Shown here in pieces: positions 2,143 to 19,149 of a stretch of 64,000 nt of DNA. The stretch is from Pseudomonadota bacterium. Lineage in GTDB: Bacteria > UBA10199 > 2-02-FULL-44-16 > JAAZCA01. A program made the translations under genes and the position numbers. The stretch is from assembly GCA_043798915.1 (NCBI GenBank), contig JAZDOG010000056.1:1-64000 (forward strand), written 5' to 3'. Positions within the stretch are counted from its first letter, which is position 1. Every line of letters starts with the position of its first letter. The notes below the pieces were generated by a model. It searched no databases and was not told where the DNA came from. It saw only the letters and a list, made by a program, of their open reading frames with translations.

Positions 2143-2188
2143 TTAATTCGTTAAATAAGTGTCGTGTCCCCCGAATTTTTGTGCCCGG

Positions 2189-2230
2189 AAACCACCGGTC
2201 ACGGAGCAAACCTTGAAAAGTAATCATATT
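2189..2230 (+). repeat. Junction repeat, single arm plus core
   Basis: aaaccaccggtcacggagcaaacc followed by gaaaagtaatcatatt, which recurs at 6485-6500. Confidence 0.85.
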
Positions 2231-2272
2231 CAGGTGTTTCAATTTTGCACGAATGGTTGCTGCATCCCAAGA

Positions 2273-3160
2273 TCAGAACCACAATGGGTGCTCCCTCCAA
2301 CCGGCCGGGATGCCCATGGAAAGCGTCGGAACTTCCCGGTAATGATCGAAGAGCGTATAAAGACGATCACGCCAATGGCTTTGCGGTGCGATGTGACGCA
2401 TGAGGTAGTACAGGAGTGTCAAGACGACAAAAAGGCGATCATTGCCAACTGCACGCGGTGCATGCCACCGGGAGTCATGTCGTGACGCCGGCAGGATCGG
2501 TTTGATGGCAAGTTCGCGGTTCCAAAGCCTGGAATGATGAGCGCACAGGTTCCGAATATAATTCAGCGTCAACAACCACGAGAACAGCACCTTCCCCGAA
2601 AGGTCAAATTTCCGGGCAATCGCCCTTTGGATGTGCATACCACTGTGGCGAAACATGGTGAACATCTGCCCGAACGTCATAGTCTCGACGGCCGCCCACA
2701 GGGGGATATCCGGAAATTCATCGTAGGTGCGCCGGAAGTGATCCACAAAGACTTCCCGGCTGCCATGGGCATTCTCATGAAGCTCGTCGATAAGGCGCTG
2801 GCGGTCCGCGGCAGTGATGCTTGGGAAAGCGCAAACGTCCAGATGCGCAAACGAGCCATGCTGCTGCGTCAGTTCGTATGCCAGGCGAGTACGGACAGCA
2901 ACCTCGACGCGCTCGATGGCATCCATGACCAGAAGGCGGAGCTGGCGGTCGAATGTATAGCGCCCCCAGACACAATCGAGCGTCGTCTTGGGTTCGAATG
3001 AGTCATCCGAACATTTAAATGGATGCCAGTAGGCGGAAAGCCGATAATAATTGACCGACTGCAGACAAGATACGAGCCGAGCCTTATCAGCGACGAGCCC
3101 GCGAGCCAGCAGATGGTCGGCCTGTTGTTCGAAGGTGAGAGGGGGTTTTGTGTACTTCAT
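2273..3160 (-). CDS. Abi_2/AbiF-family abortive-infection protein (HEPN RNase)
   Basis: MKYTKPPLTFEQQ...RGL, VNYYRLSAY, Y.FDRQLR, PLWAAVETMTFG, and HEPN motif RNLCAHHSRLWN; ATG at 3160. Confidence 0.9.
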   Translation of the reverse strand: MKYTKPPLTFEQQADHLLARGLVADKARLVSCLQSVNYYRLSAYWHPFKCSDDSFEPKTTLDCVWGRYTFDRQLRLLVMDAIERVEVAVRTRLAYELTQQHGSFAHLDVCAFPSITAADRQRLIDELHENAHGSREVFVDHFRRTYDEFPDIPLWAAVETMTFGQMFTMFRHSGMHIQRAIARKFDLSGKVLFSWLLTLNYIRNLCAHHSRLWNRELAIKPILPASRHDSRWHAPRAVGNDRLFVVLTLLYYLMRHIAPQSHWRDRLYTLFDHYREVPTLSMGIPAGWREHPLWF

Positions 3161-3169
3161 GCGAACCCC

Positions 3170-3228
3170 ATAGAAAAACCCGCCACGTTTGAGCTTGGCT
3201 TGTGCCAGAGGCTTGGCGGGTGTGCTAA
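3170..3228 (-). ncRNA. Putative abiF-associated structured RNA (candidate RNA antitoxin or leader)
   Basis: Minus strand has an 8-bp stem acccgcca...tggcgggt enclosing 28 nt, then a U-run, between the predicted promoter and the AbiF start; matches the known placement of the abiF RNA motif. Confidence 0.65.
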
Positions 3229-3232
3229 GATA

Positions 3233-3260
3233 AGGATAGCATATTGTGTGTCCGTGTCCA
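3233..3260 (-). promoter_or_regulatory. Sigma70-type promoter for the abiF RNA and gene
   Basis: Minus strand TGGACA-N16-TATCCT with extended -10 TG (TGcTATCCT). Confidence 0.5.
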
Positions 3261-3300
3261 TAAAATATTTCGACATCCGAAGCCAACTCACCCCGCCTTA

Positions 3301-3333
3301 AAACCATCGGCCACGGAGAAACCAGCGGTGGTT
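3301..3333. repeat. Junction repeat, degenerate palindrome
   Basis: aaaccatcggccacggagaaacc followed by inverted partial arm agcggtggtt. Confidence 0.7.
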
Positions 3334-3346
3334 CCGATGCTCCTTT

Positions 3347-4147
3347 TCATTGCGCTGGCTGCTTAGGCTGATAGCTGCCGCACTGAAAACTGCCTGGGTC
3401 ATTTTCCTGGTCGTCCCGCGTCAGCATACAGAGGAGATCTTCCGTCACTCCAAGCTTTCGGCAGTGCGGACAGTCAGGAGCGTGATCGGAATATTCGTAC
3501 TTGACGCAGGTTGGGCAGACGTCTTTCCAACCGGCCTTTTTTATTCCGGGTTGCGCCTTGAGCTTTGTCTTCGCTCCGCTGGGTCGAGCCTTGGATGTCG
3601 GCACCCATCCAACCTGCTTCTTTGGTTTTGCCTGTTTGATCCGCTTGAGTCCTTTATTGATCCGCTCGATCTCGAACAGCTGCGGATCGAAATTCTCACC
3701 TATCCATTCTCGCATCTCGCCATATTCCGGATGCTTTTCATCCTGGATGACAGAGAGAATATCATAATAGCCGTAAAGGCCGCCGCAATCCTCAGGTGGG
3801 GCAGCGTTTGCCCCATCCAGACAGATGGCATGCGTCACACCCTTGGGGGCCTCGGCCATCTTCTCGAAGACGATCTCATGCTCCCAGTCATCGCCGAAGT
3901 CATAGAGGTATGTCGCTTTTTGCTTGGGTCGGCTGAAATGCCGATCGAGGGGCCAGCTCTTGCCGATCTTGCTGCTGCGGTAGGCCTTGCCGGAGTAAAA
4001 ATCATGCATGTGACAGTTTTCCCAACCGAAAAGACCCTGAATCACCTTATGTAGTTCACGGAATGAGAAGGACCTGGGCACAAGAACGCGTCGCCAGATG
4101 GGCGGCCGAGAATCGACGAGCGATATTTTGAACTGATACATTTCCAT
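3347..4147 (-). CDS. Plasmid pRiA4b ORF-3 family protein with Cys-rich C-terminal extension
   Basis: YQFKISL...PPIWRR, W.NCHMH.F, YLYDFGDDWEH, APPEDCGG..GY; RBS aggagg. Confidence 0.9.
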   Translation of the reverse strand: MEMYQFKISLVDSRPPIWRRVLVPRSFSFRELHKVIQGLFGWENCHMHDFYSGKAYRSSKIGKSWPLDRHFSRPKQKATYLYDFGDDWEHEIVFEKMAEAPKGVTHAICLDGANAAPPEDCGGLYGYYDILSVIQDEKHPEYGEMREWIGENFDPQLFEIERINKGLKRIKQAKPKKQVGWVPTSKARPSGAKTKLKAQPGIKKAGWKDVCPTCVKYEYSDHAPDCPHCRKLGVTEDLLCMLTRDDQENDPGSFQCGSYQPKQPAQ

Positions 4148-4216
4148 GTGGCCTCCTGACTACCGGACACTAGGCAAGACAACGCTTGAGCGTCAACCTT
4201 AAAACTTTTCTCACTG

Positions 4217-4276
4217 TCACGCAGATGTTTCGTCGAAAACTTCCGCCACCAGCGACAAAAGTTCAGTGAGTTCCAT
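4217..4276 (-). pseudogene. Truncated 19-codon ORF, possible remnant of a nucleotidyltransferase partner gene
   Basis: MELTELLSLVAEVFDETSA* overlaps the end of the upstream 71-aa ORF; partner identity is recalled from similar gene pairs, not shown. Confidence 0.3.
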
Positions 4277-4478
4277 GGAGCATCCTGTTGGCCACTTCGG
4301 CCATCACGTGTTCTTCGTTCCAATCAGGGTGCATATGGCGGATGGATGCGCCGATCAGCGTCCGCGCAGATTTCCACATCCCGTTGGCGATGGCCAGCCG
4401 CTCCCACGGCGTCTTGTTCTGGAGGATTAGCGCCACATCGTCGTCGATCACTTCGATCTGTCCATCGCTCAAGTTCAC
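4263..4478 (-). CDS. Small hypothetical protein (TA-like)
   Basis: 71 aa GQIEVIDDDVA.IL..KTPWERL; RBS gagga upstream. Confidence 0.65.
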   Translation of the reverse strand: MNLSDGQIEVIDDDVALILQNKTPWERLAIANGMWKSARTLIGASIRHMHPDWNEEHVMAEVANRMLHGTH

Positions 4479-4506
4479 ATGGTCCTCGCAAATATCCCTA
4501 TAACAG

Positions 4507-4611
4507 ACCGCCGGTCATGGAGCAAACCCTATAATTTGAATCGGTTACACAACCGTTTCTAAGTCTGGCGTGCATAAAAATTTTAATGGATTTGCTCCGT
4601 TATGGGTGGTT
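4507..4611. repeat. Junction repeat, full palindromic element
   Basis: Arm accgccggtcatggagcaaacc (4507-4528) and inverted arm tttgctccgttatgggtggtt (4591-4611); core tttgaatcggttaca shared with ~6499-6513. Confidence 0.85.
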
Positions 4612-4632
4612 CAGGTGAGCGAAACAGTCCCC

Positions 4633-5100
4633 TCACAGATCGCTTGTGCGTATCAGGATGGAACCGTCGGCTTCCAGATTATTCGTGAGATATTTGCATC
4701 GCGCTTCATGTTCGATGCGTTCACGGTTTGCGACGAACATCTTGAGCGGGGCTTTGCCATCCTTGCCAAAATTATCTTCCAGTGCCTCCTGGCTGATGGC
4801 GCATCGCACGGTTTTTTCGCGATCCTTGCCGCTGAAGAGGACGACTTCACGATCGAAATCGTATCGCTCCTTCGGCTCTGGGAATACGAGCTGTCGCTCA
4901 TCGATCATGCCCAGCACAGTCATAATGCTTATAATGGTTGATAGCTGAATGCCCTTCTCGCCGTTTTCAAAGCGGGAGACGGTTGGAGTGCTGACGTCAG
5001 CCAGCGTTGCCAGCCTTTTCTGTGTCAGCTTTTGGTTCTTGCGTCTTTGCTTTGCCTCTTCGACAAGAGCTGACCAGTTAATTTGAAACTGCCGTTCCAT
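4633..5100 (-). CDS. XRE-type HTH protein fused to a DUF1488-like domain; probable HipA antitoxin
   Basis: LTQKRLATLADVSTPTVSRFENG HTH; C-terminal VRCAISQEALEDNF..F..NRERIE. Confidence 0.8.
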   Translation of the reverse strand: MERQFQINWSALVEEAKQRRKNQKLTQKRLATLADVSTPTVSRFENGEKGIQLSTIISIMTVLGMIDERQLVFPEPKERYDFDREVVLFSGKDREKTVRCAISQEALEDNFGKDGKAPLKMFVANRERIEHEARCKYLTNNLEADGSILIRTSDL

Positions 5101-6260
5101 CGTTTCTCCATTTTCTCTATGAGGTTATTATGCAGCGTTTGAGATCCAATGTTCGATTTTGACAGCGCTTCAAACGCAGAAGGCAATTGTTTTCCAATAG
5201 CCTCTACCGCAGTAACGACGGCCTCTTCTCTTAAGCCGAATCCCTTGCTCATTTGCAGCAAATGTTTTGGGAGCAATTTACCGATTGCAAGGTTTTCAAT
5301 TCCACTCACCGAGAGGGCGATGGACTGGTATTCCTTGTATATTGACGACGCGACCAAATCGTAAGACGGTGTTAAGCGGAGTCCGTCGCGGGTATGAAAC
5401 ATGGCAAAATTCTTGAAATGCGCATCCGTATTACCCACGAGTAAAGATGCGAAGACACGCTGCAGCAGACGATCCGCCTCAGCAGGAATGCATCCCGGAG
5501 TGTTCAGGATGAACTGTCCCATCTCTTCATACGTACCCTCATATTTATCATCGCCTGAAGATCGGCCCAGGAGTTGATTGAATTCCTCAAAATGAATTCG
5601 TTTGCCGGTTGAAGTTCGGTCGAAACGGGGGATAACGAGCGCCTGTTCCTTGATGAATGAAATACCGGCAATCTCCATGTCCACCACATCGTCACCCGGC
5701 AAGAGTTTGCGCACAGCCTGGGTAGTCAGATATTCCAATTCAATTATGTTTGCCAGGTTGCCGGAAGACAGCTTGGCAATATGCGTGCTTAATTCCCCAG
5801 GATGCACCGGACGATACTGATCGCCATCCTTGACTACGAGCAACTTGCGCTGCACGCCGGACAAAGAGGCCCTTCCCAATAAAGCTGCCAGCGTAGCGTC
5901 GTCGGTATGATCGAGATGTTTGTGTGCTTGTTCTTCCGGGTCAATAATGGAGACTGCCCCGGCAAGATCAAACCCAAACCCAAGCAGCAGCGCAAAGCGA
6001 TTGCCAGGGTTTACACCCAATGCCTTTGCCTGCGCATTTCTGAGCCAACCCTCGGCTGCCAAATTATCGAAAAACGAGTGCAATCCCTTCTCGGAAAAAT
6101 AAGGTTCGGATTGAAGCGGTAAAGTATGCGCAATTGCCGGGTGCCTGGCTTCGAGATAAGAGATGTCGTAGGTGAACACAACTCTACCGCCGGGCTCTTC
6201 CTGCAGCCTCCCGGCGTATATATCTTTAAAGTAGATTTTACCCCAAAGTGTCTTTGCCAT
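5025..6260 (-). CDS. hipA: HipA-family kinase toxin
   Basis: N-terminal F.Y...Y...LP...FFDNLAAEG; SLSGVQRK, GNTDAHFKNF, LTPSYDL. Confidence 0.9.
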   Translation of the reverse strand: MAKTLWGKIYFKDIYAGRLQEEPGGRVVFTYDISYLEARHPAIAHTLPLQSEPYFSEKGLHSFFDNLAAEGWLRNAQAKALGVNPGNRFALLLGFGFDLAGAVSIIDPEEQAHKHLDHTDDATLAALLGRASLSGVQRKLLVVKDGDQYRPVHPGELSTHIAKLSSGNLANIIELEYLTTQAVRKLLPGDDVVDMEIAGISFIKEQALVIPRFDRTSTGKRIHFEEFNQLLGRSSGDDKYEGTYEEMGQFILNTPGCIPAEADRLLQRVFASLLVGNTDAHFKNFAMFHTRDGLRLTPSYDLVASSIYKEYQSIALSVSGIENLAIGKLLPKHLLQMSKGFGLREEAVVTAVEAIGKQLPSAFEALSKSNIGSQTLHNNLIEKMEKRWNGSFKLTGQLLSKRQSKDARTKS

Positions 6261-6423
6261 ATAAAGTATGTTTTATGTTAATGGAATATCAAAGCTTTGC
6301 TATAAATCATATTATATCTTTTTAAGATAATGAGCAAGAATATAAAATATACTTGATATATTGCCTATGTGATTGACTGAAAATTCCAAGGTTTGCTGCG
6401 TCTGATGAAATTGACACCTAAAA

Positions 6424-6541
6424 TGTCAGACGGAGCAAAAATAATAGCTTAATTATCGGCAAATTAGCTTTGCTCCGATAAGATGAAAAGCAATCATATT
6501 TGAATCAGTTACAAATGGGTTTGCTCCGTTACGGGCGGTTT
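6424..6541. repeat. Junction repeat, compound element
   Basis: acggagcaaa (6430-6439), tttgctccg (6469-6477), conserved core, and full inverted arm ggtttgctccgttacgggcggttt (6518-6541) overlapping the TAA of the upstream gene. Confidence 0.85.
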
Positions 6542-7118
6542 ACTCGCATATTAATTTATTTTTGATCGTGCTCAGCTTATTATTTTTCAACCCCTCCGAA
6601 TAATCATAATAACAACCCGGCTTGGAAGAGCATTTGGTGCCCGCCCTGCCTATTAAAGTGAGCCTATTTCCTGACCAACGGTATGTTTCCGTCCAGTTTT
6701 CGCAGGCGCTGCTGTGATTGCAGCTTGAAAAAACCGTTTTTGTCGCCAGCTGCGCCTCGACGCATGGCAGGGAGCTCAGTTTCTTGTTGAAAATGAATTT
6801 TTGTTGCGAGGGATCAAACAAATAAACATTGTAAAAAATCTGCACGTTTCCAGCACTGCTGAAGACGGCAAGGTCCGGATAACCGTCGAAGTTGAAGTCC
6901 TCCAAGCGTGCCGCAGGTTCGTCGCCCAGAGATTCTTTTTCAGGGAGTTTTATCTCGATCAATGTCTTCCCCGATTTTGTCATGGAGACTCGGGCGTACG
7001 AGGCCTGACCCTTTCTTTGAATATCGAGTTTATAAAGGGGATCAGCAGGCGCGGCAAACAGCTCGAAAGGAGCCAGCGTCAAAAGAATGCCGAGACCCGC
7101 GATAACTATGGTACGCAT
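6540..7118 (-). CDS. Secreted protein, XAC2610-like
   Basis: Signal peptide MRTIVIAGLGILLTLAP; LEDFNFDGYPDL, YLFDP...F.FN..LS.L motifs; RBS aggag. Confidence 0.7.
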   Translation of the reverse strand: MRTIVIAGLGILLTLAPFELFAAPADPLYKLDIQRKGQASYARVSMTKSGKTLIEIKLPEKESLGDEPAARLEDFNFDGYPDLAVFSSAGNVQIFYNVYLFDPSQQKFIFNKKLSSLPCVEAQLATKTVFSSCNHSSACENWTETYRWSGNRLTLIGRAGTKCSSKPGCYYDYSEGLKNNKLSTIKNKLICE

Positions 7119-7132
7119 TTTTGTTCTCCTTT

Positions 7133-7182
7133 CGAAACACCGGTCGCGGAGCAAGCGCGCTCCGTGACCGGTGGTTGTTTCG
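7133..7182. repeat. Junction repeat, compact near-perfect palindrome
   Basis: cgaaacaccggtcgcggagc-aagcgc-gctccgtgaccggtggttgtttcg. Confidence 0.9.
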
Positions 7183-7242
7183 CTCAAAATGTCTCTGTGA
7201 ACAACGATGTCAAAAGGGATCGGGGGAGCGGACATTACCCGG

Positions 7243-8001
7243 CTAACAACCGCGCGTGCAATAGGCCACGGCCTGCTGGGCAGCGGAGGTGCAGTTGCCG
7301 ACGCCCGAACAATAATAGACGCCGCTGCCGACGTCGTACCAGGAATTGGTGCCATCGCTACAGGCGCGGAGGCTGCAGCTGCACATCGCAGTCCAGGACG
7401 AGCAAACGGTGTCTCCACTGGCACCGCCGTCGCTGCTCTCGATATTCTCGATCGTGGCTGACTCCACCGTATACGTGGAAAAGTTGTCTCCCGTGATACT
7501 CGCCGCAGCGAAGTCCATGTTCGTCACACCGGTATCGGCCTGCTCATAGCATGTCCCGTTGCCGCGGTAGTCGCGGTTGCAGACCTGGCTGGTGGTTGGT
7601 TCTGTGTCCACGAGTCCCGTCTCGATCTCGACCTCCCCGGCGGCGATCTCCGCGTCGGTGAGCGGGTAGACGAAATAGCCGTCGAGGTCCGTGACCTCGA
7701 TGATAATTTCGGTGATCTCGATCTCCGTAACCACGGAGAAGTCCACCGTCCACGTGACCGTCTGGTTGACGGTGTAGGTCGTGTTCGACGGCGCTGTGAC
7801 CTTCGGCTTCTGGGTCGTCGCTGCCGCTGCGGAGGACGGCGTCCCCGACTGAAAAACGGCATTCGGGATCATGAGGTACTGGTGCGTTGTTGTACCTCCG
7901 CCGTCACTGCCACTGCCACTGCCGGAGGAAAAGCACCCCGCTGCTGCCAGGCAGATGATGAATATCGAAATAGCGACAAGAAACCTCGGAGTTGTCTTCA
8001 T
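7243..8001 (-). CDS. Lipoprotein A: Thr/acidic core with Cys-rich C-terminal tip
   Basis: Lipobox AAGC followed by a Ser/Gly linker; paralog of 13364-14158. Confidence 0.8.
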   Translation of the reverse strand: MKTTPRFLVAISIFIICLAAAGCFSSGSGSGSDGGGTTTHQYLMIPNAVFQSGTPSSAAAATTQKPKVTAPSNTTYTVNQTVTWTVDFSVVTEIEITEIIIEVTDLDGYFVYPLTDAEIAAGEVEIETGLVDTEPTTSQVCNRDYRGNGTCYEQADTGVTNMDFAAASITGDNFSTYTVESATIENIESSDGGASGDTVCSSWTAMCSCSLRACSDGTNSWYDVGSGVYYCSGVGNCTSAAQQAVAYCTRGC

Positions 8002-8268
8002 ATTCCCCCTTTCCCCGGCGATGCGACAGCCGCACCAGAGACGGCTCTGACGGTCTTTGTTTGTATATGAATTCTAGCATATGACAATGAAATACGATAG
8101 CACTGGTTCCCTTCTGAGGAACCTTGGCACCATCTCAGTTATTTCTTATATTTAAGAGTTTATCCCCCATTTATTTAGGGTGCCAAAAGTGAAAAACCCT
8201 TGGAATTCCAAGGTTTTTTTCTTATCTCAATATGAACTTTAGAACCAACAGTATAAATCTTCGTAGCC

Positions 8269-8295
8269 TCACGAAGCGTATTCACAGGCTTCATG
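8269..8295 (-). repeat. Displaced copy of the radical SAM gene 3' end (direct repeat of 12042-12068)
   Basis: tcacgaagcgtattcacaggcttcatg vs tcacgaagcgtattcgcatgcctcatg, 24/27 identical; both encode HEACEYAS* on the minus strand. Confidence 0.85.
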
Positions 8296-8471
8296 TGTCC
8301 CACGGCGGAGCTGTCTTTTCAAATTTCAACTAGGACTAGGATATCATCTAATATAGCAAATTATTTGACAAATATTTGTGATCGGAAGAATACAGTAGCA
8401 TCCTTATAAAGAAAGAATACTATGGCGCATCCAGAATAGAAGTTCTAAAATTTTTGAAGAAAGGAGTACTT

Positions 8472-8837
8472 ATGGGAAAAAAGATATTAATTGTTGATGA
8501 TGATGAGACGATGTTGCGTCTTTTGGCAAATGAGCTCAAAAAAGAGGGTTATAGTGTTATAACAGCGACGAATGGGGCAAATGCAATAAATTACGCGATT
8601 TGTGAAAAACCAGACATTATTATTATGGATATTTTGCTTCCGGATATGCAGGGGTCGGATGCGGTTAAGCGTATGCAGAATAGTGCTGATGCGCCTGATG
8701 ATTTAAATATTATCTTTTTATCTGGGGTTGTTATACAAGACGATGAATATAATCAGAGGGTTCAGGTTGGAGGGAAATATTATCCAGCAATCCCTAAGCC
8801 TCTTGACCTTGATCGGTTGTTAAAAATGCTTTTATAA
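8472..8837 (+). CDS. Single-domain response regulator
   Basis: KKILIVDDD, PDIIIMDILLP, PKP; RBS aaggag. Confidence 0.9.
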   Translation: MGKKILIVDDDETMLRLLANELKKEGYSVITATNGANAINYAICEKPDIIIMDILLPDMQGSDAVKRMQNSADAPDDLNIIFLSGVVIQDDEYNQRVQVGGKYYPAIPKPLDLDRLLKMLL

Positions 8838-8928
8838 TAATTCTCTATTCTTCAATTTCTTGAGACATCTTCGGATTCGTTTTTCTAAGTTCAGCGAGTT
8901 CTATTTCTTTATCGAGCCGGGGAATGTC

Positions 8929-10461
8929 ATGCCTGAGATTATTAAGGTTGGTTTGATAGCTATTGGGATTAGTCTTATAATTATTGTCGCAGGCGTTGGC
9001 TTATTTTTATTTTACCGGTATTTTGTCCAAAGCATATATCGTCTGATTGAAAAAGAGAGCGCTATAGATCGTACATTTCCTGGCACTCCGTTACAGTACG
9101 ATGGTGGCGCTGGGGGCTTTGCTGCGAAGGGCAAAGAAGTGCAAAAGAGTGCACAGAGTGGTAATGCGCAGAGTGTTACCGTATATGTGCTCGAAAATGA
9201 TCTAAAAAAAATTGGAATTCCATCCAGCAAACGATCCGATGTATCTCGACTTATCAGGAATCTTGCCACCCAACAAGCCGATGAAGAGGTCAACCAAGTC
9301 CGTCACGCGTTTAAACAGCAGCTTGACGAAAAAGAGCAGGCCCTGACACAGACACATCAAAGTATTACTCGTATAAATAAAAAGCTTGAAGCAGTTTCCG
9401 CAAGTTATGCAAAGCTGGGCAAAGAGAAAAAACAGACTGAGGATGTGGTTCGCTCATTAGCAGACGGTCTAATAGTGGTGGATGATCAGGGCAGAACGGT
9501 TCTTATGAACCCTGCTGCAGAAAAGTTATTGGGCACTGAATTGAAAAATGTCCTGGGTAAACGCATCAGTGATCAACAAAGCGAGGAGAGGGTGATCTCT
9601 ATTGCCCAAAACAGGGAAGGCCAGAAGGATAAACAAATCGTACTTAGTGGTGCAAGCGAGGAAACAAAAGAAGTTTTAAAAGCCAGCTCGGCGGTGATTG
9701 AAAACGAAGCTGGCCAAACCATGGGAATGGTTTCTGTTCTCTCTGACGTCACGAAACATAAGGAGCTTAAAGCGATGCATTCTCAGTTTGTAGCCAGAGT
9801 ATCGCATGAGCTTCAGGCCCCCCTGGGGCGTATTCTTGAGTCTATAAAACTTCTTTCAGACAACCCGGCAGGCGACATCAACGCCAAGCAAGAGGAAGTT
9901 TTAGAGTTGGTTTCGCGAAACATCGGCAGACTGACTACTCTAACCAATAATTTGCACTATCTTTCGCAAATTGAAGCTGGCAACATAAAACTTGATATTT
10001 CGGAGTTTCAGCTTGAAGAATTAATAGAGCAGATCAAGAAGTCTTTTAAGTCATGGGCCGACAGCAAAAATGTTGCCATAGAAACCAGCTTTCCTCCCGA
10101 AACAGTTAAGTTACATGCTGATCAGAATAAAATAGGTCAAGTGCTTACCAACCTGATAGAAAATTCGATGAAATTCGTGGAGAGAAGTGGAAAGATTGAA
10201 ATAGAAGTCAAGCCAGCAGATAATGTTGTGGAGGTGGGAATAAAGGATAATGGACCCGGTATTTCCGAGAAAGACAGGAAATCTATTTTTGAGAAGTTTA
10301 AGCAATTCAGGGATTCAGAAGGAGTAGGGCTTGGTCTCACGATCGCAAGGGAATTTGTTAAGCTTCACGGCGGCCATATATCAGTCAAAAGCGAAGAGGG
10401 AAAAGGGAGCCTCTTTACTATTTCGATGCCAATGCAGAAAGCCGCTGATACAGAGCCATAA
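8929..10461 (+). CDS. Membrane-anchored PAS sensor histidine kinase
   Basis: N-terminal TM, coiled coil, PAS (NPAAEKLLG), H-box SHELQAPL, N-box NLIENS, DNGPG, GVGLGL. Confidence 0.9.
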   Translation: MPEIIKVGLIAIGISLIIIVAGVGLFLFYRYFVQSIYRLIEKESAIDRTFPGTPLQYDGGAGGFAAKGKEVQKSAQSGNAQSVTVYVLENDLKKIGIPSSKRSDVSRLIRNLATQQADEEVNQVRHAFKQQLDEKEQALTQTHQSITRINKKLEAVSASYAKLGKEKKQTEDVVRSLADGLIVVDDQGRTVLMNPAAEKLLGTELKNVLGKRISDQQSEERVISIAQNREGQKDKQIVLSGASEETKEVLKASSAVIENEAGQTMGMVSVLSDVTKHKELKAMHSQFVARVSHELQAPLGRILESIKLLSDNPAGDINAKQEEVLELVSRNIGRLTTLTNNLHYLSQIEAGNIKLDISEFQLEELIEQIKKSFKSWADSKNVAIETSFPPETVKLHADQNKIGQVLTNLIENSMKFVERSGKIEIEVKPADNVVEVGIKDNGPGISEKDRKSIFEKFKQFRDSEGVGLGLTIAREFVKLHGGHISVKSEEGKGSLFTISMPMQKAADTEP

Positions 10462-10494
10462 ACATTCATCACGTTCTCCTTTCGAGGATGCATA

Positions 10495-11970: not shown

Positions 11971-12041
11971 GTGGGTTTCTACTTATCTCGTCGCTTAAAC
12001 TCATAATTTTTCCTCCCCCGGATATATTGTTATGTGGTTTA

Positions 12042-13355
12042 TCACGAAGCGTATTCGCATGCCTCATGAGGTTTGCGGTGGTGGGCCCGCCACCAGTGGG
12101 AGAGGTTCATGATGAAATAGTAGAGGGGCTGCGACCGGTTGGCCCAGAAGCGTTTCAGGATCGAGCGCCACGTATAGAACCTCTTCGGAAACCGAAGATG
12201 AATCGCCTCGATCTCCTCCCTGTTCATCGTCGGATGATGGCACACCAGGTTCGCGCCCGTATAGTGCTCCCAGTTAAAATCGAAGATCCTCTTTTCGCGC
12301 AGCGCGGTGTCGTAAAAGGCGGTTCCCGGAAAGGGGGTCATGATCCCGGTGTTCACAAGCGCCAACCGGTTGCGCATGGCAAAATCGTACACGCCGTTGA
12401 GGGTCTCCCTGGTATCCTGATCAAAGCCGAACATGAAGGCGCCGATCAGGTTGATCCCCGCCCGCGTTATCTTGCGGATGTGGGTCTCGTAATCCCTGAC
12501 CTTGTTGAACGATTTGTTCGCAAGGTTCAAGGTCCCCTGGTCGATCGATTCGATGCCCACGAAGAGGCTGATGCAGCCGGAGTCGACGGCGAGTTTCAAG
12601 AGCTTCTCGTCGCGCGCAATCATCTCCAGCGAGCCCTGAGATCCCCACTTGATTTTCATCGGGATCAGCGCCTCAAAAAGCTTGTAGGCGTATTCCTTCG
12701 TGAAGAATATGTTGTCGTCCACGAAGAAGAAGATGCGCGATGGGAAGCGCTTGATCTCCTCCACGACGTGCTCCACTGGACGAGTCCGATGCCTGCTGCC
12801 GTACATCTTCGTCACCGTGCAGAAATTGCATCCCAGCGGGCATCCGCGGCTGGTCTGCAGAACCTGCGTGTTGAGGGTGGTGTGCCCAGCGAGGAAGAGG
12901 TCCTTGCGGGGCATCGGCAGATCCTTGAGCTCGACAAAGGAGTCAGCGCGGTAGACCTGTTTGAGCGCCCCCGCCTGAAGGTCCGCCATGATCTGAGGCC
13001 ACACCAGCTCGGCCTCGTTGACGACCACGGCATCGAAGCGCTGCGAGCACTCCTCGACCATGAACGAGGCGTGGCTTCCCCCGCAGATGGTCGGGATGCC
13101 CCTCTTGCGGAAGTGATCCGCGAGCTCATACCCTCGCGTCGCCTGACAGGTCATCATCGTGATGCCGACGAGGTCCGCGGTCTCGCTGAGGTCCAGCGGC
13201 TCGAAGGTCTCCTCCACGATCCTGATCTCATCGAAAAAGGGTGTGGCGAGGCCCGCCACCATCGCGAGGCTCAAGTGATGCGCGTATTTGCCCTTGGCCT
13301 TTCTAACTTCCAGGCTGGCCGGGGCGATAAGGAGGAGCTTGTTTGGGCGCGTCAT
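12042..13355 (-). CDS. B12-binding radical SAM protein
   Basis: GGSHAS cobalamin-domain motif, SRGCPLGCNFC (CxxxCxxC), FVDDNI, GIES. Confidence 0.9.
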   Translation of the reverse strand: MTRPNKLLLIAPASLEVRKAKGKYAHHLSLAMVAGLATPFFDEIRIVEETFEPLDLSETADLVGITMMTCQATRGYELADHFRKRGIPTICGGSHASFMVEECSQRFDAVVVNEAELVWPQIMADLQAGALKQVYRADSFVELKDLPMPRKDLFLAGHTTLNTQVLQTSRGCPLGCNFCTVTKMYGSRHRTRPVEHVVEEIKRFPSRIFFFVDDNIFFTKEYAYKLFEALIPMKIKWGSQGSLEMIARDEKLLKLAVDSGCISLFVGIESIDQGTLNLANKSFNKVRDYETHIRKITRAGINLIGAFMFGFDQDTRETLNGVYDFAMRNRLALVNTGIMTPFPGTAFYDTALREKRIFDFNWEHYTGANLVCHHPTMNREEIEAIHLRFPKRFYTWRSILKRFWANRSQPLYYFIMNLSHWWRAHHRKPHEACEYAS

Positions 13356-13363
13356 CCGGTTCG

Positions 13364-14158
13364 CTAATACCCCGTGCATACGTGCACACATGATTGAGCT
13401 ATTTGATCCGCGGCGCTCGTGCTGTAGGTCTGCCCGTTGTACACATACCAGCAGCTGCCGCTGTCGTTGCAGCACGATTGGATGCTGCACGCAGTGCACA
13501 CCATATACGTCGACGAGCAGGTCCCGCCGCTCCCGCCAGCACTCCCTCCGGTAGTTCCGCCGGTGTCGCTCGCACTTGAATCGACGCTCTCGATCGTGAC
13601 CGTCGCCTCGACCTCAACGGTCCAGCTGAAGGTCGCCTGCGCGTCGTCGTAACTCGCCGCCGTGAAATCCATGCCCGTCACGCCGGTGTCGGCCTCTCCG
13701 TAGCAGGTGCCATTCCCGCGCCAGTCGCGGTTGCAGACCTGGCCGCCGGGCTTCGAGTCGACGACTTCAGTTTCGATAGCGACTTCGCCGGCTGCGAGTT
13801 CATCAGGCGTGAGCGGATAGACGAAATAGCCGTCGAGATCCGGGACCTCGATGATGATGTCTGTGACCGTGATCTCCGTGATCGAGGTGAAGGTCACCGT
13901 CCAGGTGACAGTCTGGTTGAGCGTGTAGGCGGTGTTCGGCGGCGCCGTGACCTTGGGCTTCTGGGTCGTGTTGCCCTTCGACCCCGGGGGCGAACCCGGC
14001 ACGAAGACGGCGTTCGGAATCTTGAGGTATTGATGCGCGACAGCGCTGTTGCCGCTGACATTGCTGCCACTGTCACTGACGCTGCTCGTCCCCAGCTTGC
14101 CACATGCGGCCAGGACGACGACGGCCGATATCACAGAAACCAACCGAAGAATCTTCAT
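13364..14158 (-). CDS. Lipoprotein B: paralog of lipoprotein A
   Basis: Lipobox LAAC; shares HQYL.IPNAVF, TTQKPKVTAP, DLDGYFVYPLT, QVCNRD.RGNGTCY with 7243-8001; RBS ggagg. Confidence 0.8.
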   Translation of the reverse strand: MKILRLVSVISAVVVLAACGKLGTSSVSDSGSNVSGNSAVAHQYLKIPNAVFVPGSPPGSKGNTTQKPKVTAPPNTAYTLNQTVTWTVTFTSITEITVTDIIIEVPDLDGYFVYPLTPDELAAGEVAIETEVVDSKPGGQVCNRDWRGNGTCYGEADTGVTGMDFTAASYDDAQATFSWTVEVEATVTIESVDSSASDTGGTTGGSAGGSGGTCSSTYMVCTACSIQSCCNDSGSCWYVYNGQTYSTSAADQIAQSCVHVCTGY

Positions 14159-14378
14159 GCTCGCCTCCATTTCATTAAAATACTCCACACTCTATACATA
14201 GACAGGTGCACCAGTAAACCAGAAATCAGCATGTCGAGTGACAACAACATCATACGAACAACATCAGACGGAGCGGACTGACGGCTTAATCCTTATAATA
14301 AAGATATTTACGCGCTGGAAATTGTCTTGCTTGTAATGTACCCTTCACTTGTTTCGCACTCAAACGAAAGGACACACA

Positions 14379-15701
14379 ATGAAAAAACTATTAAGCATCG
14401 TCTCTCTTCTCCTCCTCTCCATCTGCATCATCAGGCCCGCGTTCTCCGAGGAGATCAAGATGCGCAGCGTCGGCGGCGTGTACACGGTGCCCGTGAGGCT
14501 GAACAACGCATTGACGATGGACTTCATGATCGACACAGGCGCGGCCGACATCGGCCTCTCGGACGAGATCGCTGGCAGGCTGCTCAGCACGGGCATAATG
14601 ACGGAGCGCGATTTCAATGGCTCCGAGCGTTACACCCTGGCCGACGGTTCATCGGTCGCCTGCCGGGCGCTCGTGCTGCGCTCCGTGCGCATCGGAGGGC
14701 GCGAGGTTTCCGAAGTGAAGGCGAGCGCCTGCCCCGGCAAAGCGCCGTTGCTGCTGGGCCAGAGCTTCCTCAAGAAGCTGGGGCCCTGGGCCCTGGACTA
14801 CGGCAGGGAATTCCTGGTGGTGATGTCCGAGGTAAAAAAGGAGCTCGAGCCGGTGGCGTACACGCCCAAGGATGTGGAGTGGCAGCAGAATGCCGGTGCA
14901 CAGGGCGACGCCGCGGCGCAGTTCAACCTCGCCGTGATGTATGAGAAAGGCGAAGACGTCCCGAAGGATCAGGTGAAGGTCGTGGAGCTGCTCAAAAAAT
15001 CCGCAGCACAGGGCTATGCGCCGGCGCAGATGGGCCTCGGCTGGCTGTATCAGACAGGGAACGGCCTTCCAAAGAACTCATCGAAGGCATTCGAACTCTT
15101 TCAAAAGGCGGCGGGGCAAGGGTTTCCGGCGGCGCAGGTGATGCTCGGGAGCATGTACCATGGCGGTTTGGGGGTCCCCAAGAACATGGCCAAGGCGATC
15201 GAATGGTATCAAAAGGCGGCAGAGCGCGGCAACGATGCGGCGCATACCAACCTGGGGATGATGTACGAGATGGGCGATGGCGTTCCGAAAGATTCCGCAA
15301 AGGCGGCGGAGTGGTTCCGAAGAGGGGCCGACCGCGGCGGCCTGCTCTGCCAGTACTATCTCGCAGCGGCATACTTGAATGGCGAAGGCGTCCCCAAGGA
15401 TATCGCAAAGGGGATCGAGCTGTTGCAAAAGGCGTCCGAAGGCGATCTGTCTTCCGCGCAGCGGCACTTGGGCTCCTTGTATTATTCGGGCAACGAAGTG
15501 CCGAAGAACAAGGTCCTGGCCTGGATCTGGACCAAATTGGCCACGGCTGGGGTGGGGACACAACCGCCTGTTTATCTCACGGGAACGACGGCTGCGGAGG
15601 ACCTGGCGATCATTGAGAAGGACATGACCCCTGCAGAAATCTCCCAAGCCCAAGCGCTCGCCGCCGGCTGGAAGCCAGGGCAGGCTCTCATGCGAAAGTG
15701 A
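14379..15701 (+). CDS. Secreted retropepsin-like aspartyl protease fused to Sel1-like repeats
   Basis: Signal peptide; FMIDTGA and LLGQSFL; about six AQ..LG..Y..G.GVPK repeats. Confidence 0.88.
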   Translation: MKKLLSIVSLLLLSICIIRPAFSEEIKMRSVGGVYTVPVRLNNALTMDFMIDTGAADIGLSDEIAGRLLSTGIMTERDFNGSERYTLADGSSVACRALVLRSVRIGGREVSEVKASACPGKAPLLLGQSFLKKLGPWALDYGREFLVVMSEVKKELEPVAYTPKDVEWQQNAGAQGDAAAQFNLAVMYEKGEDVPKDQVKVVELLKKSAAQGYAPAQMGLGWLYQTGNGLPKNSSKAFELFQKAAGQGFPAAQVMLGSMYHGGLGVPKNMAKAIEWYQKAAERGNDAAHTNLGMMYEMGDGVPKDSAKAAEWFRRGADRGGLLCQYYLAAAYLNGEGVPKDIAKGIELLQKASEGDLSSAQRHLGSLYYSGNEVPKNKVLAWIWTKLATAGVGTQPPVYLTGTTAAEDLAIIEKDMTPAEISQAQALAAGWKPGQALMRK

Positions 15702-15723
15702 AAACTGCCGGTAACGGAGCAAA
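15702..15723 (+). repeat. Junction repeat, single arm directly after a stop codon
   Basis: TGA followed immediately by aaactgccggtaacggagcaaa. Confidence 0.85.
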
Positions 15724-15902
15724 TTTGTATAGGGCTGCCTTCACCGACCGAAATTATATCAGGAAAACTGATTTACACAAGAATCCTCTCGGCAAGAGGA
15801 ACCGCTGAACCAGTTGTAAACCATCTGACAATATATAATGGAAATTGTAGTGTTTATGATGTATCCTCTGCTTAAAAATAGTACTATTATTGGAGATAGG
15901 AA

Positions 15903-16820
15903 ATGAAAAGACGACATTTAAATTTGGGATGTGCCGGGATTGCATTGCTGGTCGTATGTTTAACGGTGGTCTTGATCGCAAGACCCGCTGAAGCGGAAAA
16001 GAAGTCCATAACGCTCACAGGTTTTGGCGATTGCTATAGCGGAGGACAAAATAAGGTTTCCATAACACTTGTGGAAAACAAGCCCGGCATATACACGGCA
16101 ACGGGAATCCTTTCCCTTTATCCGACATGGACTGAAAATCTGCAGATAAAAGGTACATACTATGCAAAAAGCGGTGCATTGAAGGCGGCCGCAAGAAATC
16201 CTGAACCGACGGGCGAGCTTATTGTCAATGGATACATCGTCAAATCGGATATGTACAAAACGCGAATGGACGTCACGATTGAATCGCCGACAAAAAAACT
16301 ATTTTTCGACGGCATAATAAGTTCTAATGAAGAGCTTCAATCAGAACAAACTTCTCCACCAGAAACAGTACCCGAAGAAGCAGAGATAACAAAAATCGAA
16401 GGAAAGGAACCCTCCCCTCCCGAAGCGCATGAGGAATGGGATGGCCGATGGAGAGGCACGGCAAAGACCGAACACGTCATCGATAGTAATCCCAAGGTGG
16501 AAATGTCAGGGGAATACGAGTTCCAGATCGTCCGCGAGGGATCAAAGATACTCCTCACCGAAGGCGGAAAGACAACAACGCTCAATATCAACGAGAAAAA
16601 CCCAAATGCTGCAAGATCCCGAGAGGAAAAGAAAGAATCTGCGCCCGTGGGTGAGGGATGGACAAAAACGATAGACAGGCGCTTTATCTTTTTAAACAGC
16701 GGCCGTCTCTACACGGCAAGAAAAATCGAGGTAACCTCACACATAAAACTCCCTGGCCTGCCCTTTGGGGATTCACACGCCACGAATTTCACCCATGGCA
16801 TGCTTGATCGAGTGAAATAA
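15903..16820 (+). CDS. Secreted hypothetical protein
   Basis: 305-aa ORF with signal peptide (AEA cleavage) and two predicted beta-rich halves joined by a Pro/Glu linker. Confidence 0.7.
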   Translation: MKRRHLNLGCAGIALLVVCLTVVLIARPAEAEKKSITLTGFGDCYSGGQNKVSITLVENKPGIYTATGILSLYPTWTENLQIKGTYYAKSGALKAAARNPEPTGELIVNGYIVKSDMYKTRMDVTIESPTKKLFFDGIISSNEELQSEQTSPPETVPEEAEITKIEGKEPSPPEAHEEWDGRWRGTAKTEHVIDSNPKVEMSGEYEFQIVREGSKILLTEGGKTTTLNINEKNPNAARSREEKKESAPVGEGWTKTIDRRFIFLNSGRLYTARKIEVTSHIKLPGLPFGDSHATNFTHGMLDRVK

Positions 16821-16950
16821 TGATTGTCTAATTGAAATCCAGCATAATCCAGATCGAATAAAATACCGCCGACTGTCCGGTACCCAGACTTGACCCCTTT
16901 GTGATGCAAGGGGATGACAGAAGAAGCCTTCCCTTTTCCCAACCCTCTGT

Positions 16951-18954
16951 TTACGGTTGAAACTGAAATCTCTTGAGAAAATCTGCTACCCACGACTCGC
17001 CTGTCAAATCTGCGTTTGAAAAGACATAGGCCTGATATATCCTGCCATTCTTCAGCGTGTAGTACCTCTGCATTGCCCCTGTCGGATCTTCGGCCAAAAT
17101 CCAGTCGATACCATTGTATGAGATCGTCTTAAATGGTTTATGATCGGTCGCCCGCTGCGACTCAAGATCGCCAGGAATCCTCTCCTTGATGAGCGTCTCC
17201 TGCGTCGCACCCGCAATCTCAAAGACCTTGATCGTGAGCGAGGTCATCGGATTGACCGTGTTCTCAGTGATAAAATAGCCAACGCCAATGCCGGGCCATA
17301 CCGCCTTATTCACTTTCGAAAAACCCGCAGGGACGGTGAATATGAGATGGCCCTCGGGAGAGGTGACCACGTTCTCCATCCCGCTGACCTTATGTTCGCT
17401 CTCGGGTATCGCCTTGAGCGCCTGGCCTGAGTAGGCCTGCTTGAATGCGGTGAAGAGGGTTATCCGCCGCACGAGCCCCTTATCATCATAGAAGAACTCC
17501 ATCGCGGCGTTCGTGACTACCTTGAGACCTCCCCAGTTGCTCGTCGCGGGCTGATAGAAATAAGTATCTGTAAGAGCAGTAGACGCATCCGGTTTATTGT
17601 AGGCCTTCTGCACCTTCGCCCTCGAAGAGCCAAATCCAATTCCAAGATTCGTCTTTATCGGGAGGCGATTCTCCGCCAGGAGATCGATCCTTCCGATGGC
17701 ATTCCCTCCCATCAAACCCTGCGAAACATACACATCATCGCCTTGTGCAGCGAAACCGGCAAGGCGCGGGGAAGTCTTTGCAGAAAAGAACTCCTGCATT
17801 CTCCCCATCGGTTCGCCGAGTCTCAACCAGGCGCCATTCGCCATGATGCCAGCCTCCTCCGGCACGATCAAAACAGGCTCTCCCTTTATCGCCTTCTGCC
17901 AATCGCCAGGGACGGGATTGCTGGTTACCGCAGGCTGCTCCATTTTTTTTGCGATTTCAGGCGCGAGACCTGGGCCAGATAGCGGGTATTTGTAGGGCGT
18001 TGCTGCGGCAGCCTCATCCTGGACGACAACCGGGATCGGGCCGGTCGGTTTGACGCTCGGATCCTTCAGATACGCAGCGATCTCCGGCGGGGTCGGTCGA
18101 TCGTACAGGACCCAGGCGTTATGGACGAAGTTCGTGAAGATATCGTAATCGATCCAGGCAAAACCGCCGTCGCCCCACTGCGGCCCCCACGAGTTCATGA
18201 CCTTCAATGCATGTTTTTTATCATCGTAGCCCACGGCGACCATGTGATGACCATCTGTGATCTGCTCAGGAGTGACCGGGGTTCTCAGGACCGGATCCTT
18301 CTTTCTGAGGGCCTTGAAAGCCTTGCCGTACTGGACGTCTATGCCCACAGGTTCGCCCGACGCGAGCATCGCTTTGATGGGATAGATATCATTCACTTCG
18401 ATGGTGCGAAACCCAAGGATACGGAAATAGCGCCCGAGCTGTTTTACCTCAGCGGATGGCTGGGTCTTCTCATCCGTGTCGATGAAGGGAAAGATCAACC
18501 AGGGAACGGCCCCATCGGTCACCAGAAAATTCAGAAAATTGAGGAAGGGCTCCTTCTCGCGCCTGTTGCTGCCGGTATACTGGTTGTGCATGAAGGCGGG
18601 GCTGAATATATGGCTATCACCATAACCCCAGCCGAGTTCTCGCTGTTTCTGAAAGCTGCGGATGGCGTACGTGGTCGCCCAGGCGTAACAGGACAGGGAG
18701 TCGCCCTGACTTCTGGGCAGCGGAAAGCCTGGGCTTAAATCCACCGAAGCCGGGAGGTTGGCAAACGGTTTGCCGCTGATCGAGGTGAAGCTGCGCACCA
18801 TCTTCACCTTCTCGATCTTGAGATATTCCTCGGGCGACATCTTGATGGCGCCGGTGCTCATTTTTATGGGTGGGCCAGACGCGGCCTCCTGGGCGACCAA
18901 TATTTTGGGGACGAGCGCGATCAGGACCAATACAGGAAGGAGATATTTTTTCAT
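16951..18954 (-). CDS. Secreted C1 (papain-like) cysteine peptidase with long C-terminal extension
   Basis: LPASVDL, QGDSLSCYAWA, HHMVAVGYDD, NSWGPQWGDGG; signal peptide MKKYLLPVLVL. Confidence 0.88.
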   Translation of the reverse strand: MKKYLLPVLVLIALVPKILVAQEAASGPPIKMSTGAIKMSPEEYLKIEKVKMVRSFTSISGKPFANLPASVDLSPGFPLPRSQGDSLSCYAWATTYAIRSFQKQRELGWGYGDSHIFSPAFMHNQYTGSNRREKEPFLNFLNFLVTDGAVPWLIFPFIDTDEKTQPSAEVKQLGRYFRILGFRTIEVNDIYPIKAMLASGEPVGIDVQYGKAFKALRKKDPVLRTPVTPEQITDGHHMVAVGYDDKKHALKVMNSWGPQWGDGGFAWIDYDIFTNFVHNAWVLYDRPTPPEIAAYLKDPSVKPTGPIPVVVQDEAAAATPYKYPLSGPGLAPEIAKKMEQPAVTSNPVPGDWQKAIKGEPVLIVPEEAGIMANGAWLRLGEPMGRMQEFFSAKTSPRLAGFAAQGDDVYVSQGLMGGNAIGRIDLLAENRLPIKTNLGIGFGSSRAKVQKAYNKPDASTALTDTYFYQPATSNWGGLKVVTNAAMEFFYDDKGLVRRITLFTAFKQAYSGQALKAIPESEHKVSGMENVVTSPEGHLIFTVPAGFSKVNKAVWPGIGVGYFITENTVNPMTSLTIKVFEIAGATQETLIKERIPGDLESQRATDHKPFKTISYNGIDWILAEDPTGAMQRYYTLKNGRIYQAYVFSNADLTGESWVADFLKRFQFQP

Positions 18955-19135
18955 GCCGACTTGTATACTATTCTTTGGATAATAAGCCAAGCGGTCGATC
19001 AGTTCATATGGACTATTGACGCCTCTTCCCTCCTGACAATCTCCCAAGGCTCTCCTGTGCAAGGGTGTCGCCATGCGCGGCTGTGACGACCTACACATAC
19101 AGCGCAGCGAATGGCACATTCCAGTGAGGATGTGG

Positions 19136-19149
19136 AACCACCGGTCACG
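19136..19149 (+). repeat. Junction repeat, partial arm at the right edge of the accessory region
   Basis: aaccaccggtcacg, identical to 2190-2203. Confidence 0.7.

Follow-up and report, generated by a model that had tools for sequence, protein, structure and literature searches.

A 21-nucleotide arm repeat as the probable terminal inverted repeat of a RAYT-like Y1 transposase family in an uncultured groundwater lineage

Genes resembling those of REP-associated tyrosine transposases (RAYTs; REP, repetitive extragenic palindromic sequence) can lie between terminal inverted repeats (TIRs) that are unrelated to the GTAG REPs, and Di Nocera et al. 2013 (PMC3733652) describe TIR families whose members are single, dimeric or grouped. 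The same paper places REP-type repeats downstream of coding regions (PMC3733652). Bertels et al. 2017 (PMC5581495) showed that flanking repeats are abundant in some RAYT groups and not in others. In their passages on enzyme subclasses, Quentin et al. 2018 (PMC6006769) propose that subclass 2.1 corresponds to the TIRYTs; next to genes of subclasses 2.1 and 2.3 they report no REP-like structures. Here we describe a 21-nt repeat, the arm, that recurs in a 64,000-nt stretch of contig JAZDOG010000056.1 (the window), together with its family, its anatomy, its physical link to Y1 genes and a comparison of filled with empty sites. A first reading of the letters of this stretch (the sequence-only reading) had proposed either a non-integron gene capture or shuffling system or a family of miniature inverted-repeat transposable elements (MITEs) or REPs. 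In our judgment, the arm is probably the TIR of a small mobile-element family built around a RAYT-like Y1/HUH transposase.

The arm repeat and its physical link to Y1 genes

The genome under study (G000; G, C and L numbers denote genomes, contigs and loci) is a 2.34-Mb, 97%-complete assembly of 105 contigs with 57.7% GC, and the window is C94:1-64000. The arm AACCACCGGTCACGGAGCAAA is called type A and its sister repeat TCAGACGGAGCAAA type B. Eight matches to the arm with at most 3 mismatches were found in the window, at 2190(+), 4506(+), 4591(-), 6520(-), 7135(+), 7156(-), 15703(+) and 53988(+), against none in 100 dinucleotide-preserving shuffles; relaxing the limit to 4 mismatches added 3302(+) and a 14-nt partial copy at 19136(+). 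The repeat noticed in the sequence-only reading is real, with coordinates that were off by 1-3 nt. Of the arms it had listed at 6430, 6469 and 6518, the last lies at 6520, and the other two proved to be a type B copy, TCAGACGGAGCAAA, and the core TTTGCTCCG only.

Genome-wide, there were 19 arms with at most 3 mismatches and 24 with at most 4, and 11 of these 24 were on C94, 9 of them inside 2190-19156. A position matrix trained on 21 non-G000 arms found the same G000 sites. It gave 29 matches of at least 14 bits, compared with 12 in a reversed-genome control, and scores near 14 bits are therefore noise. Likeness between copies ended exactly at 21 nt, with unrelated flanks on both sides, and the 4 nt before the outer arm end showed neither a consensus nor a target-site preference. 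Within the arm, two conserved blocks, AACCAC and CGGAGCAA, lie about one helical turn apart, and the bases between them vary. Arms in the window were solo (2190, 6520, 15703 and 53988), joined in (+,-) doublets with AACC outward (4506-4611 and 7135-7176) or decayed (3302-3333 and 19136). The type A copies are given below together with the three type B copies of the window (at 6392, 6426 and 14264).

2190..2210, plus strand: solo type A arm, exact consensus; no fold by itself (z 0.07)
3302..3333, plus strand: decayed arm (4 mismatches, 21.5 bits), then an outer fragment, CAGCGGTGGTT, in inverted orientation; the two probably arose by collapse of a doublet
4506..4611: 106-bp doublet of arm(+), 64-nt spacer and arm(-), AACC ends outward, REPIN/MITE-like; single-stranded fold z -2.68
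6392-6405, minus strand, with 6426-6439, plus strand: inverted type B pair TCAGACGGAGCAAA, forming a hairpin; fold of 6392-6540 z -5.18
6469..6477, minus strand: isolated core copy TTTGCTCCG
6520..6540, minus strand: type A arm, starting on the final base of the TAA that closes the XAC2610-family gene 6540-7118
7135..7176: 42-bp back-to-back doublet, a perfect-type palindrome with a 15-pair stem (z -5.04), between gene 7243-8001 and the ribosome-binding site (RBS) and ATG of gene 6540-7118
14264..14277, plus strand: type B copy with 2 mismatches
15703..15723, plus strand: solo type A arm, 1 nt past the TGA of the Sel1/aspartyl-protease gene 14349-15701; no fold (z -0.37)
19136..19149, plus strand: outer 14 nt of the arm, AACCACCGGTCACG, overlapping the first codons of open reading frame (ORF) 16951-19155; its 14.4 bits are within the noise of the matrix scan
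53988..54008, plus strand: solo type A arm inside the 3' end of the Lgt-family ORF 53137-54048, outside the interval first reported

In two related genomes, arm(+) and arm(-) were found 767-774 bp apart with a single ORF between them (G011:C128 and G016:C79; 202 or 188 aa), and both ORFs exceeded the Pfam Y1_Tnp cut-off of 23 bits (31.0 and 29.1 bits). The ends of the G011:C128 unit are bipartite, each consisting of an arm, 3 nt and a second core copy. A third unit, at G011:C43, has the diverged arm AACCATRGTCCACGAAGCAATT on both sides as well as inner core copies. Two further units are decayed: at G016:C25 a Y1 gene fragment lies beside an arm, and at metagenome locus L205 a 366-bp doublet retains 60-66 C-terminal Y1 codons with 62-68% identity. 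There are thus 3 intact and 2 decayed examples, and the layout of a full unit in related genomes is arm(+), a leader of about 90-150 nt, a Y1 gene of 186-202 aa, about 30 nt and arm(-). No DDE gene lay between arms at any locus examined, and the only coding content there was Y1.

The right end of the G011 Y1 unit contains a stretch, TTGAAT..GGTTAC, that recurs beside arm 6520 and within the spacer of the 106-bp doublet; because of this shared stretch, the elements in the window look like internal-deletion derivatives of an arm-Y1-arm unit. In the scheme that we propose, internal deletion of the full unit would give rise to doublets of 42-200 bp that form long hairpins, and further decay would leave solo arms, the window holding only doublets and solo arms. 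The Y1 enzyme would move the arms, and the arms would play no part in moving neighbouring genes. Their sites are intergenic gaps, often against a stop codon, concentrated in a patchy and foreign-looking toxin-antitoxin/defence region. The earlier suggestion of a MITE/REP family served by an HUH (RAYT) enzyme encoded elsewhere was supported: relatives have Y1/HUH genes between inverted arms, whereas the search of G000 turned up none with such flanks.

Arm pairs were pooled from the window, the relatives' loci and the metagenome contigs, and distinct pairs within 900 bp were compared. There were 20 (+,-) pairs and 2 (-,+) pairs, the latter being neighbours 615 and 896 nt apart rather than units. 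Between the arms of the 20 (+,-) pairs there was nothing, or a Y1 gene or remnant as the only cargo. No consistent target duplication was seen beside the 20 doublets, which fits HUH enzymes, unlike DDE-type MITEs. Doublets folded as single strands beyond shuffles (z -2.7 to -5.2). The only possible stem within an arm is of 3 bp, and position 8 varies in it without compensation. As a separate observation, outer-part stutter copies, AACCACCGGT and ACCGGTGGTT, adjoin full arms at three loci (L200 1491-1500, L217 after 1488 and L228 530-564); they could indicate where within the arm cleavage or strand switching takes place.

The type A arm was present in 12 of 40 other genomes, with 1-6 copies each, and a reversed-pattern control gave 2 matches in all 41. 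Arm-bearing genomes belong to the same family, to the same order (two or more families) and, weakly, to the same class, and G000 has the most arms (19) among the 41 genomes searched. A metagenome scan found the arm in 34 contigs. A degenerate arm pattern run against 596 Gb of contigs, for which we estimate about 140 chance matches, gave at least 115 stretches that are mostly chance matches inside coding sequence, and no claim about distribution is drawn from it. A plasmid collection held no match to 2146-8100 (blastn, distant mode).

The Y1 gene family and the sister repeat

Homologues of the Y1 gene were sought in 22 genomes of the order (E <= 1e-10) and found in 20 of them, and 24 loci with 41-100% identity to the query were examined. 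The 9-nt core ACGGAGCAA (at most 1 mismatch) stood in forward orientation within 300 nt upstream of the gene at 17 of the 24 loci, and in reversed orientation within 300 nt past the stop at 12. The wrong orientation was seen at only 2 (upstream) and 1 (downstream) of the 24, and our own estimate of chance is about 0.03 per side. Because the core flanks 17 and 12 of 24 diverged Y1 genes in the right orientation, we argue for a long co-evolution of gene and repeat.

These counts also bear on the idea that the element is an ordinary MITE, with the arms as inverted ends of a DDE-transposase insertion sequence (IS) and the Y1 gene as a passenger in a few copies. The arms do act as classical TIRs with a second internal core copy, and a TIR plus an internal core copy is a layout typical of DDE transposons; moreover, the single arm has no hairpin and the region is rich in ISs. 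Against this, the core is correctly oriented beside Y1 genes as diverged as these (46-55% identity to the query), and the 20 doublets lack consistent target duplications, the IS1634-family element of the window has unrelated ends and the loci examined have no DDE gene between their arms. We hold an ordinary MITE to be highly improbable, and favour TIRs of a Y1 transposase family.

In a maximum-likelihood tree, the three arm-flanked genes formed one clade, clade A (support 95/89, long branches), which a gene from G005 joined as sister (support 99/95). The only close homologue in G000, C31:24211-24810, is 49-55% identical and falls in the short-branched clade B, whose proteins have an additional conserved C-terminal stretch of about 45 residues. 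In clade B units, 1-4 copies of TCAGACGGAGCAAA and then a small hairpin GTGCAGCGAAACGCAGCAC precede the gene, and inverted repeat copies follow it after about 205-290 nt. The hairpin GTGCAGCGAAACGCAGCAC is conserved and has 7 pairs, an A/A mismatch and an AAA loop (for example at G000 C31:24860-24900, which is L149, and at L151, L153, L163, L164 and L170). In appearance it is reminiscent of the subterminal hairpins at IS200/IS605 left ends. The type B repeat TCAGACGGAGCAAA gave 49 matches in G000 with at most 2 mismatches, against 7 in the control; 12 were exact, and about 40 copies are spread over more than 20 contigs, including four 67-bp doublets.

The HUH motif (N-H-x-H) and Y-x-D-x-N were invariant in 21 homologues, that of G000 included. 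An AlphaFold model of the G000 Y1 protein had a mean pLDDT of 81.8, and its best PDB match was 4ER8, the E. coli REP-associated tyrosine transposase on a REP hairpin (E 1.2e-5, TM 0.70 on target), which ranked ahead of the IS200, IS608 and ISDra2 transposases. As judged from motifs and model, the Y1 enzyme looks functional. Separately, two Y1 genes of another subfamily (325-335 aa) lie at contig starts (C93:11-1018 and C71). Their identity to the arm-linked family is 26%, they reach 67 bits with the NCBIfam RAYT model against a cut-off of 80, and their C-terminus weakly resembles Sigma70_r4. The C93 gene is followed, at C93:1389-2910, by a HipA_C gene, a Couple_hipA+HTH gene and a type A arm 6 nt past the stop.

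Core-gene sites and the accessory-gene island

Arms were also present at core genes. The genome-wide search placed one directly past the nuoF stop and 23 nt before nuoG (C94:64252), and another over the stop of a D-Ala-D-Ala carboxypeptidase (dacB-like) gene upstream of miaA (C20:85863), besides the copy inside lgt. On C12 an amino-acid permease gene has an arm on either side, and on C93 an arm is near purH. On C88 an open frame of 2196 codons takes its stop from a degenerate arm. Most copies are intergenic. The statement that arms always fall at gene boundaries is nearly right; the exceptions are 19136, in the first codons of ORF 16951-19155, and 53988, inside the 3' end of the Lgt-family ORF. 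Five of the 19 arms lie within -12 to +4 nt of the end of a co-oriented ORF of at least 100 codons, compared with 3.5% of random positions. In the window, the contact with stop codons noted earlier was confirmed, the TAA at 6540-6542 overlapping the arm by 1 nt and the TGA at 15699-15701 being followed by one A and then the arm. The palindrome next to a gene start was found as described: 7135-7176 is followed by a minus-strand AGGAG and by an ATG at 7118.

The nuoF-nuoG junction, between two genes of the NADH dehydrogenase operon, is free of arms in five relatives: in three the spacer measures 0-35 nt, and in two there are other palindromic repeats. This sets a filled site against empty ones. 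Across genera, the junction holds three unrelated small repeats in three (G000 C94:64229-64275; L190, G010; L193, G011) and is empty in three others; it thus looks like a site on which repeats have landed more than once. The commonest repeat in G000 by 14-mer count is another palindrome, ...CCCTCCCCTTTGTAAGGGGAGGGTCAGGGTGGGGTAGATC..., whose core 14-mers occur about 60-74 times; it is also in the nuoF-nuoG spacer of G010 (L190). Directly upstream of nuoF, on the same strand, lies a Schlafen AlbA_2/HATPase_c_4/HTH_24 gene (C94:65530-66972).

This variable occupancy is hard to square with a fixed regulatory or structural DNA or RNA motif (an operator, protein-binding site, 3'-end stabiliser or terminator) that is selected and not mobile. 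Such a motif would suit the two conserved blocks about one helical turn apart, the excess of arms just past co-oriented ORFs and the doublet 7135-7176, which is terminator-like on the plus strand. Orthologous junctions differ in occupancy, however; copies lie inside coding 3' ends (the C88 stop codon and lgt), deletion derivatives still carry transposase remnants, and the window holds no Rfam family. We regard it as very unlikely; a secondary effect of the arms on mRNA ends may exist and would be compatible with their being TIRs. Promoters of the sigma-54, ECF or sigma-70 type were considered and set aside, since the spacing did not fit on inspection and a promoter scan of 2000-8300 gave no excess (7 against a shuffle mean of 5.1). 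A Xer/dif-like site was also considered; the arm shows no evident resemblance to the dif consensus, and the idea was dropped once the Y1 link appeared.

The region from which the repeat was first described is an island of accessory genes, in which 7 of the 19 arms lie within 13.5 kb among toxin-antitoxin and defence genes. Over the first 20 kb, GC varies from 38 to 63%, the value for the whole genome being 57.7%. Its first part holds the following.

1-138: C-terminus of an IS66-type transposase (IS66_C, 27.7 bits, just below the cut-off of 30); gene cut by the contig start
139..2145, minus strand: IS1634-family IS, with transposase 234-2042 and 24-nt inverted ends 139-162/2122-2145
2156..2171, minus strand: solo copy of a different small repeat, GGGGACACGACACTTA..., 18 nt from arm 2190
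2273-3307, minus strand: Abi_2 gene
3347-4147, minus strand: PRiA4_ORF3 gene
4263-4478, minus strand: Rv0078B-type antitoxin gene
4633-5100, minus strand: HTH+DUF1488 gene
5025-6260, minus strand: HipA gene
6540-7118, minus strand: XAC2610-family gene (NF047539, 85 bits against a cut-off of 35)
7243-8001, minus strand: unnamed gene, with a 56%-identical paralogue at 13364-14188

The gene names given earlier held for Abi_2, PRiA4_ORF3, HipA, HTH and XAC2610-like, and failed for the 'lipoprotein A' at 7243-8001, which lacks Pfam/NCBIfam support. Neither this gene nor its paralogue had a Pfam or NCBIfam match, and neither was found in 12 same-family genomes. No Rfam family or tRNA was found in scans of the window.

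The IS1634 assignment (NCBIfam 279 bits against a cut-off of 100; Pfam DDE_Tnp_1) concerns an element that is single-copy in the genome and sits directly after the stop codon of the IS66-type gene, as nested ISs. Because it ends in its own inverted repeats (139-162 and 2122-2145), the last base being 2145, arm 2190 lies outside it, and the possibility that the arm is an end of the adjacent IS was ruled out. Metagenome contigs from groundwater run X1 match 142-2146 and then diverge, in agreement with this boundary.

The small repeat beside arm 2190, GGGGACACGACACTTA..., has 11 genome matches with at most 2 mismatches, three of which are palindromic pairs. This second small repeat, AATTCC-GGGGACACGACACTTAATTC, forms pairs at C73:1373-1414, C75:1459-1513 and C88:6625-6670 and is solo on C11, C73, C98 and C99 and at 2156-2171 of the window. 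It starts with GGGGACAC, which fits the GGGGWSAS motif given for some TIRYT TIRs in the corresponding part of Di Nocera et al. Twice, 14-18 nt separate it from a type A arm.

Arms of the island are mostly diverged (21-29 bits), and three carry TAACGG, a variant frequent in other genera; at core genes, several copies match perfectly or almost perfectly (33-36 bits in the matrix scan). As far as these scores go, this suggests that part of the island's arm load came with foreign DNA or is older. In relatives, a toxin-antitoxin/defence domain lay within about 1.5 kb at 9 of 17 arm loci, a raw count and hence a lead only. The domains were Fic, HepT/MNT, MNT/HEPN (twice), ParE, BrnA, SIR2, type I restriction, PD-(D/E)XK and NTP_transf_8. 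Arms at G013:C8 are accompanied by Fic, SMR and HepT/MNT, and MNT/HEPN pairs adjoin both intact Y1 units.

Such surroundings recall gene cassettes, and the sequence-only reading had taken the arms for sites of a non-integron capture or shuffling system. In that case the arms would be recombination sites, analogues of attC or plasmid dif, with a recombinase encoded elsewhere; in a variant, Y1 would move whatever lies between a (+) and a (-) arm. Speaking for this are the 7 of 19 arms in 13.5 kb, the HipA/HTH pair between arm 4506(+) and arm 6520(-), the raw count of 9 of 17 loci in relatives and a metagenomic HipA/HTH relative (about 90% identical) whose likeness starts at 4614, 3 nt outside the arm end at 4611. 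The last point cuts both ways: because the likeness ends outside the arm, the arm is not part of the HipA/HTH module, and the relative has no arm. Nor do the arms behave as cassette borders, since the 20 (+,-) pairs within 900 bp hold nothing or only a Y1 gene or remnant, the genes lie between elements, and orientation is mixed along the minus-strand genes (+,+,+/-,-,+/-,+). Arms are also found in the nuo operon, between the dacB-like gene and miaA and inside lgt. On inspection, the arm has no RYYYAAC/GTTRRRY boxes, as had been said from the start. The whole assembly has only two Phage_integrase-family genes (PF00589; open frames of 312-313 aa; C80 and C77) and one large serine recombinase (C103), none of them in the window. 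We rejected capture or shuffling on these grounds and regard its being right after all as very unlikely.

It is similarly unlikely that a Y1/HUH enzyme acting in trans on (+)/(-) arms around other genes gathers or moves toxin-antitoxin/defence modules. If true, it would amount to module exchange of the integron or plasmid-dif kind, carried out on single strands by an HUH enzyme, and would explain the clustering of arms in such islands in several genera, including 2-16 kb of the window.

A number of results weigh against the family of Y1-associated TIRs that we favour. The full 21-nt arm was on both sides at only 3 of the 24 homologue loci. The enclosed ORFs scored 35-39 bits on the NCBIfam RAYT model, under its cut-off of 80, and no PDB chain was matched by sequence, either with the single protein or with a profile. 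No clade A (arm-flanked) gene was found in the G000 assembly, and the C31 gene is flanked only by repeats of the sister type, degenerate on the upstream side and weak on the downstream side. In eight genomes there were arms and no clade A gene among the fetched loci, so that the presence of arms and of clade A genes does not track. Characterised Y1 enzymes recognise hairpins in single-stranded DNA; solo arms folded no better than shuffles (z 0.07 and -0.37), and neither arm end had a GT[AG]G foot. The clustering of arms in the island is unexplained by the model. Finally, no movement was observed. Run X1 (0.05 share of sampled words) was the one public run to turn up; its contigs are distant relatives of two parts of the region, the IS and the HipA/HTH pair, to which they are 85-95% alike, and in the parts covered no joint at an arm was seen. 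If TIRs of a Y1 family are nonetheless what the arms are, the mover would be the C31 clade B enzyme, by way of the shared core, or a clade A gene that is unassembled or lost.

Comparison with known systems

The analysis dispels the attractive but mistaken notion of a new integron-like system, and documents a little-studied TIR-type Y1-transposase repeat system in an uncultured groundwater lineage. Two sister repeat types with one core, most type A copies being without a cognate gene, offer a natural case for asking whether a RAYT-like enzyme can cross-mobilise repeats related to its own, and in what way a Y1 enzyme would process ends that form no hairpin by themselves. The arms are also useful as annotation markers: at C88, lgt and ORF 16951-19155, gene calls run into repeat DNA, which makes up their 5' or 3' ends.

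With integron cassettes (attC/IntI) the locus shares short hairpin-forming sites between co-oriented accessory genes, toxin-antitoxin pairs included. It differs in that no IntI-type integrase was found in the 97%-complete assembly, attC boxes are absent and orientation is mixed; in addition, the sites occur at core genes as well, and what they enclose is a transposase gene rather than cargo.

The likeness to REPIN/RAYT systems is closer. As the relevant parts of the literature describe them (E. coli TnpA_REP with REP/BIME and structure 4ER8, and Pseudomonas REPINs; PMC3116915, PMC3337134 and PMC5581495), these also have a single-copy RAYT-fold Y1 gene between inverted dispersed repeats, a hairpin-forming doublet as the replicative-looking unit and repeats mostly downstream of genes. 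In contrast, the single arm here is non-palindromic and without GT[AG]G, copies number in the tens and not the hundreds (type A, 19-24 in G000 and 1-6 in 12 relatives; type B, about 40 in G000), and the NCBIfam RAYT equivalog was matched only under its cut-off.

With subclasses 2.1/2.3 of TnpA-Y1 class 2, as characterised in the pertinent passages of PMC6006769, the Y1 genes share a length greater than that of IS200 transposases, a conserved C-terminal extension, a Y---N motif and low copy number. They differ in having a conserved core repeat and the hairpin GTGCAGCGAAACGCAGCAC upstream of most Y1 genes, the comparison being one of descriptions.

The TIRtron/TIRYT systems, as set out in the sections of PMC3733652 devoted to them, match in having a RAYT-like Y1 gene between non-GTAG terminal inverted repeats, and in moderately abundant TIR families that occur as singles, dimers and groups with fewer copies than REPs. 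Two differences stand beside this: the arm with its bipartite ends does not fit the GGGGWSAS motif reported there, and here two sister TIR types share a core in one genome, type A being without a gene of its own in the assembly. The repeat is set apart from a classical REP by its non-palindromic unit and the absence of GT[AG]G, and copy number seems low as well. The best fit is therefore TIRtron/TIRYT, and we file the system among elements of the TIRtron/REPtron kind.

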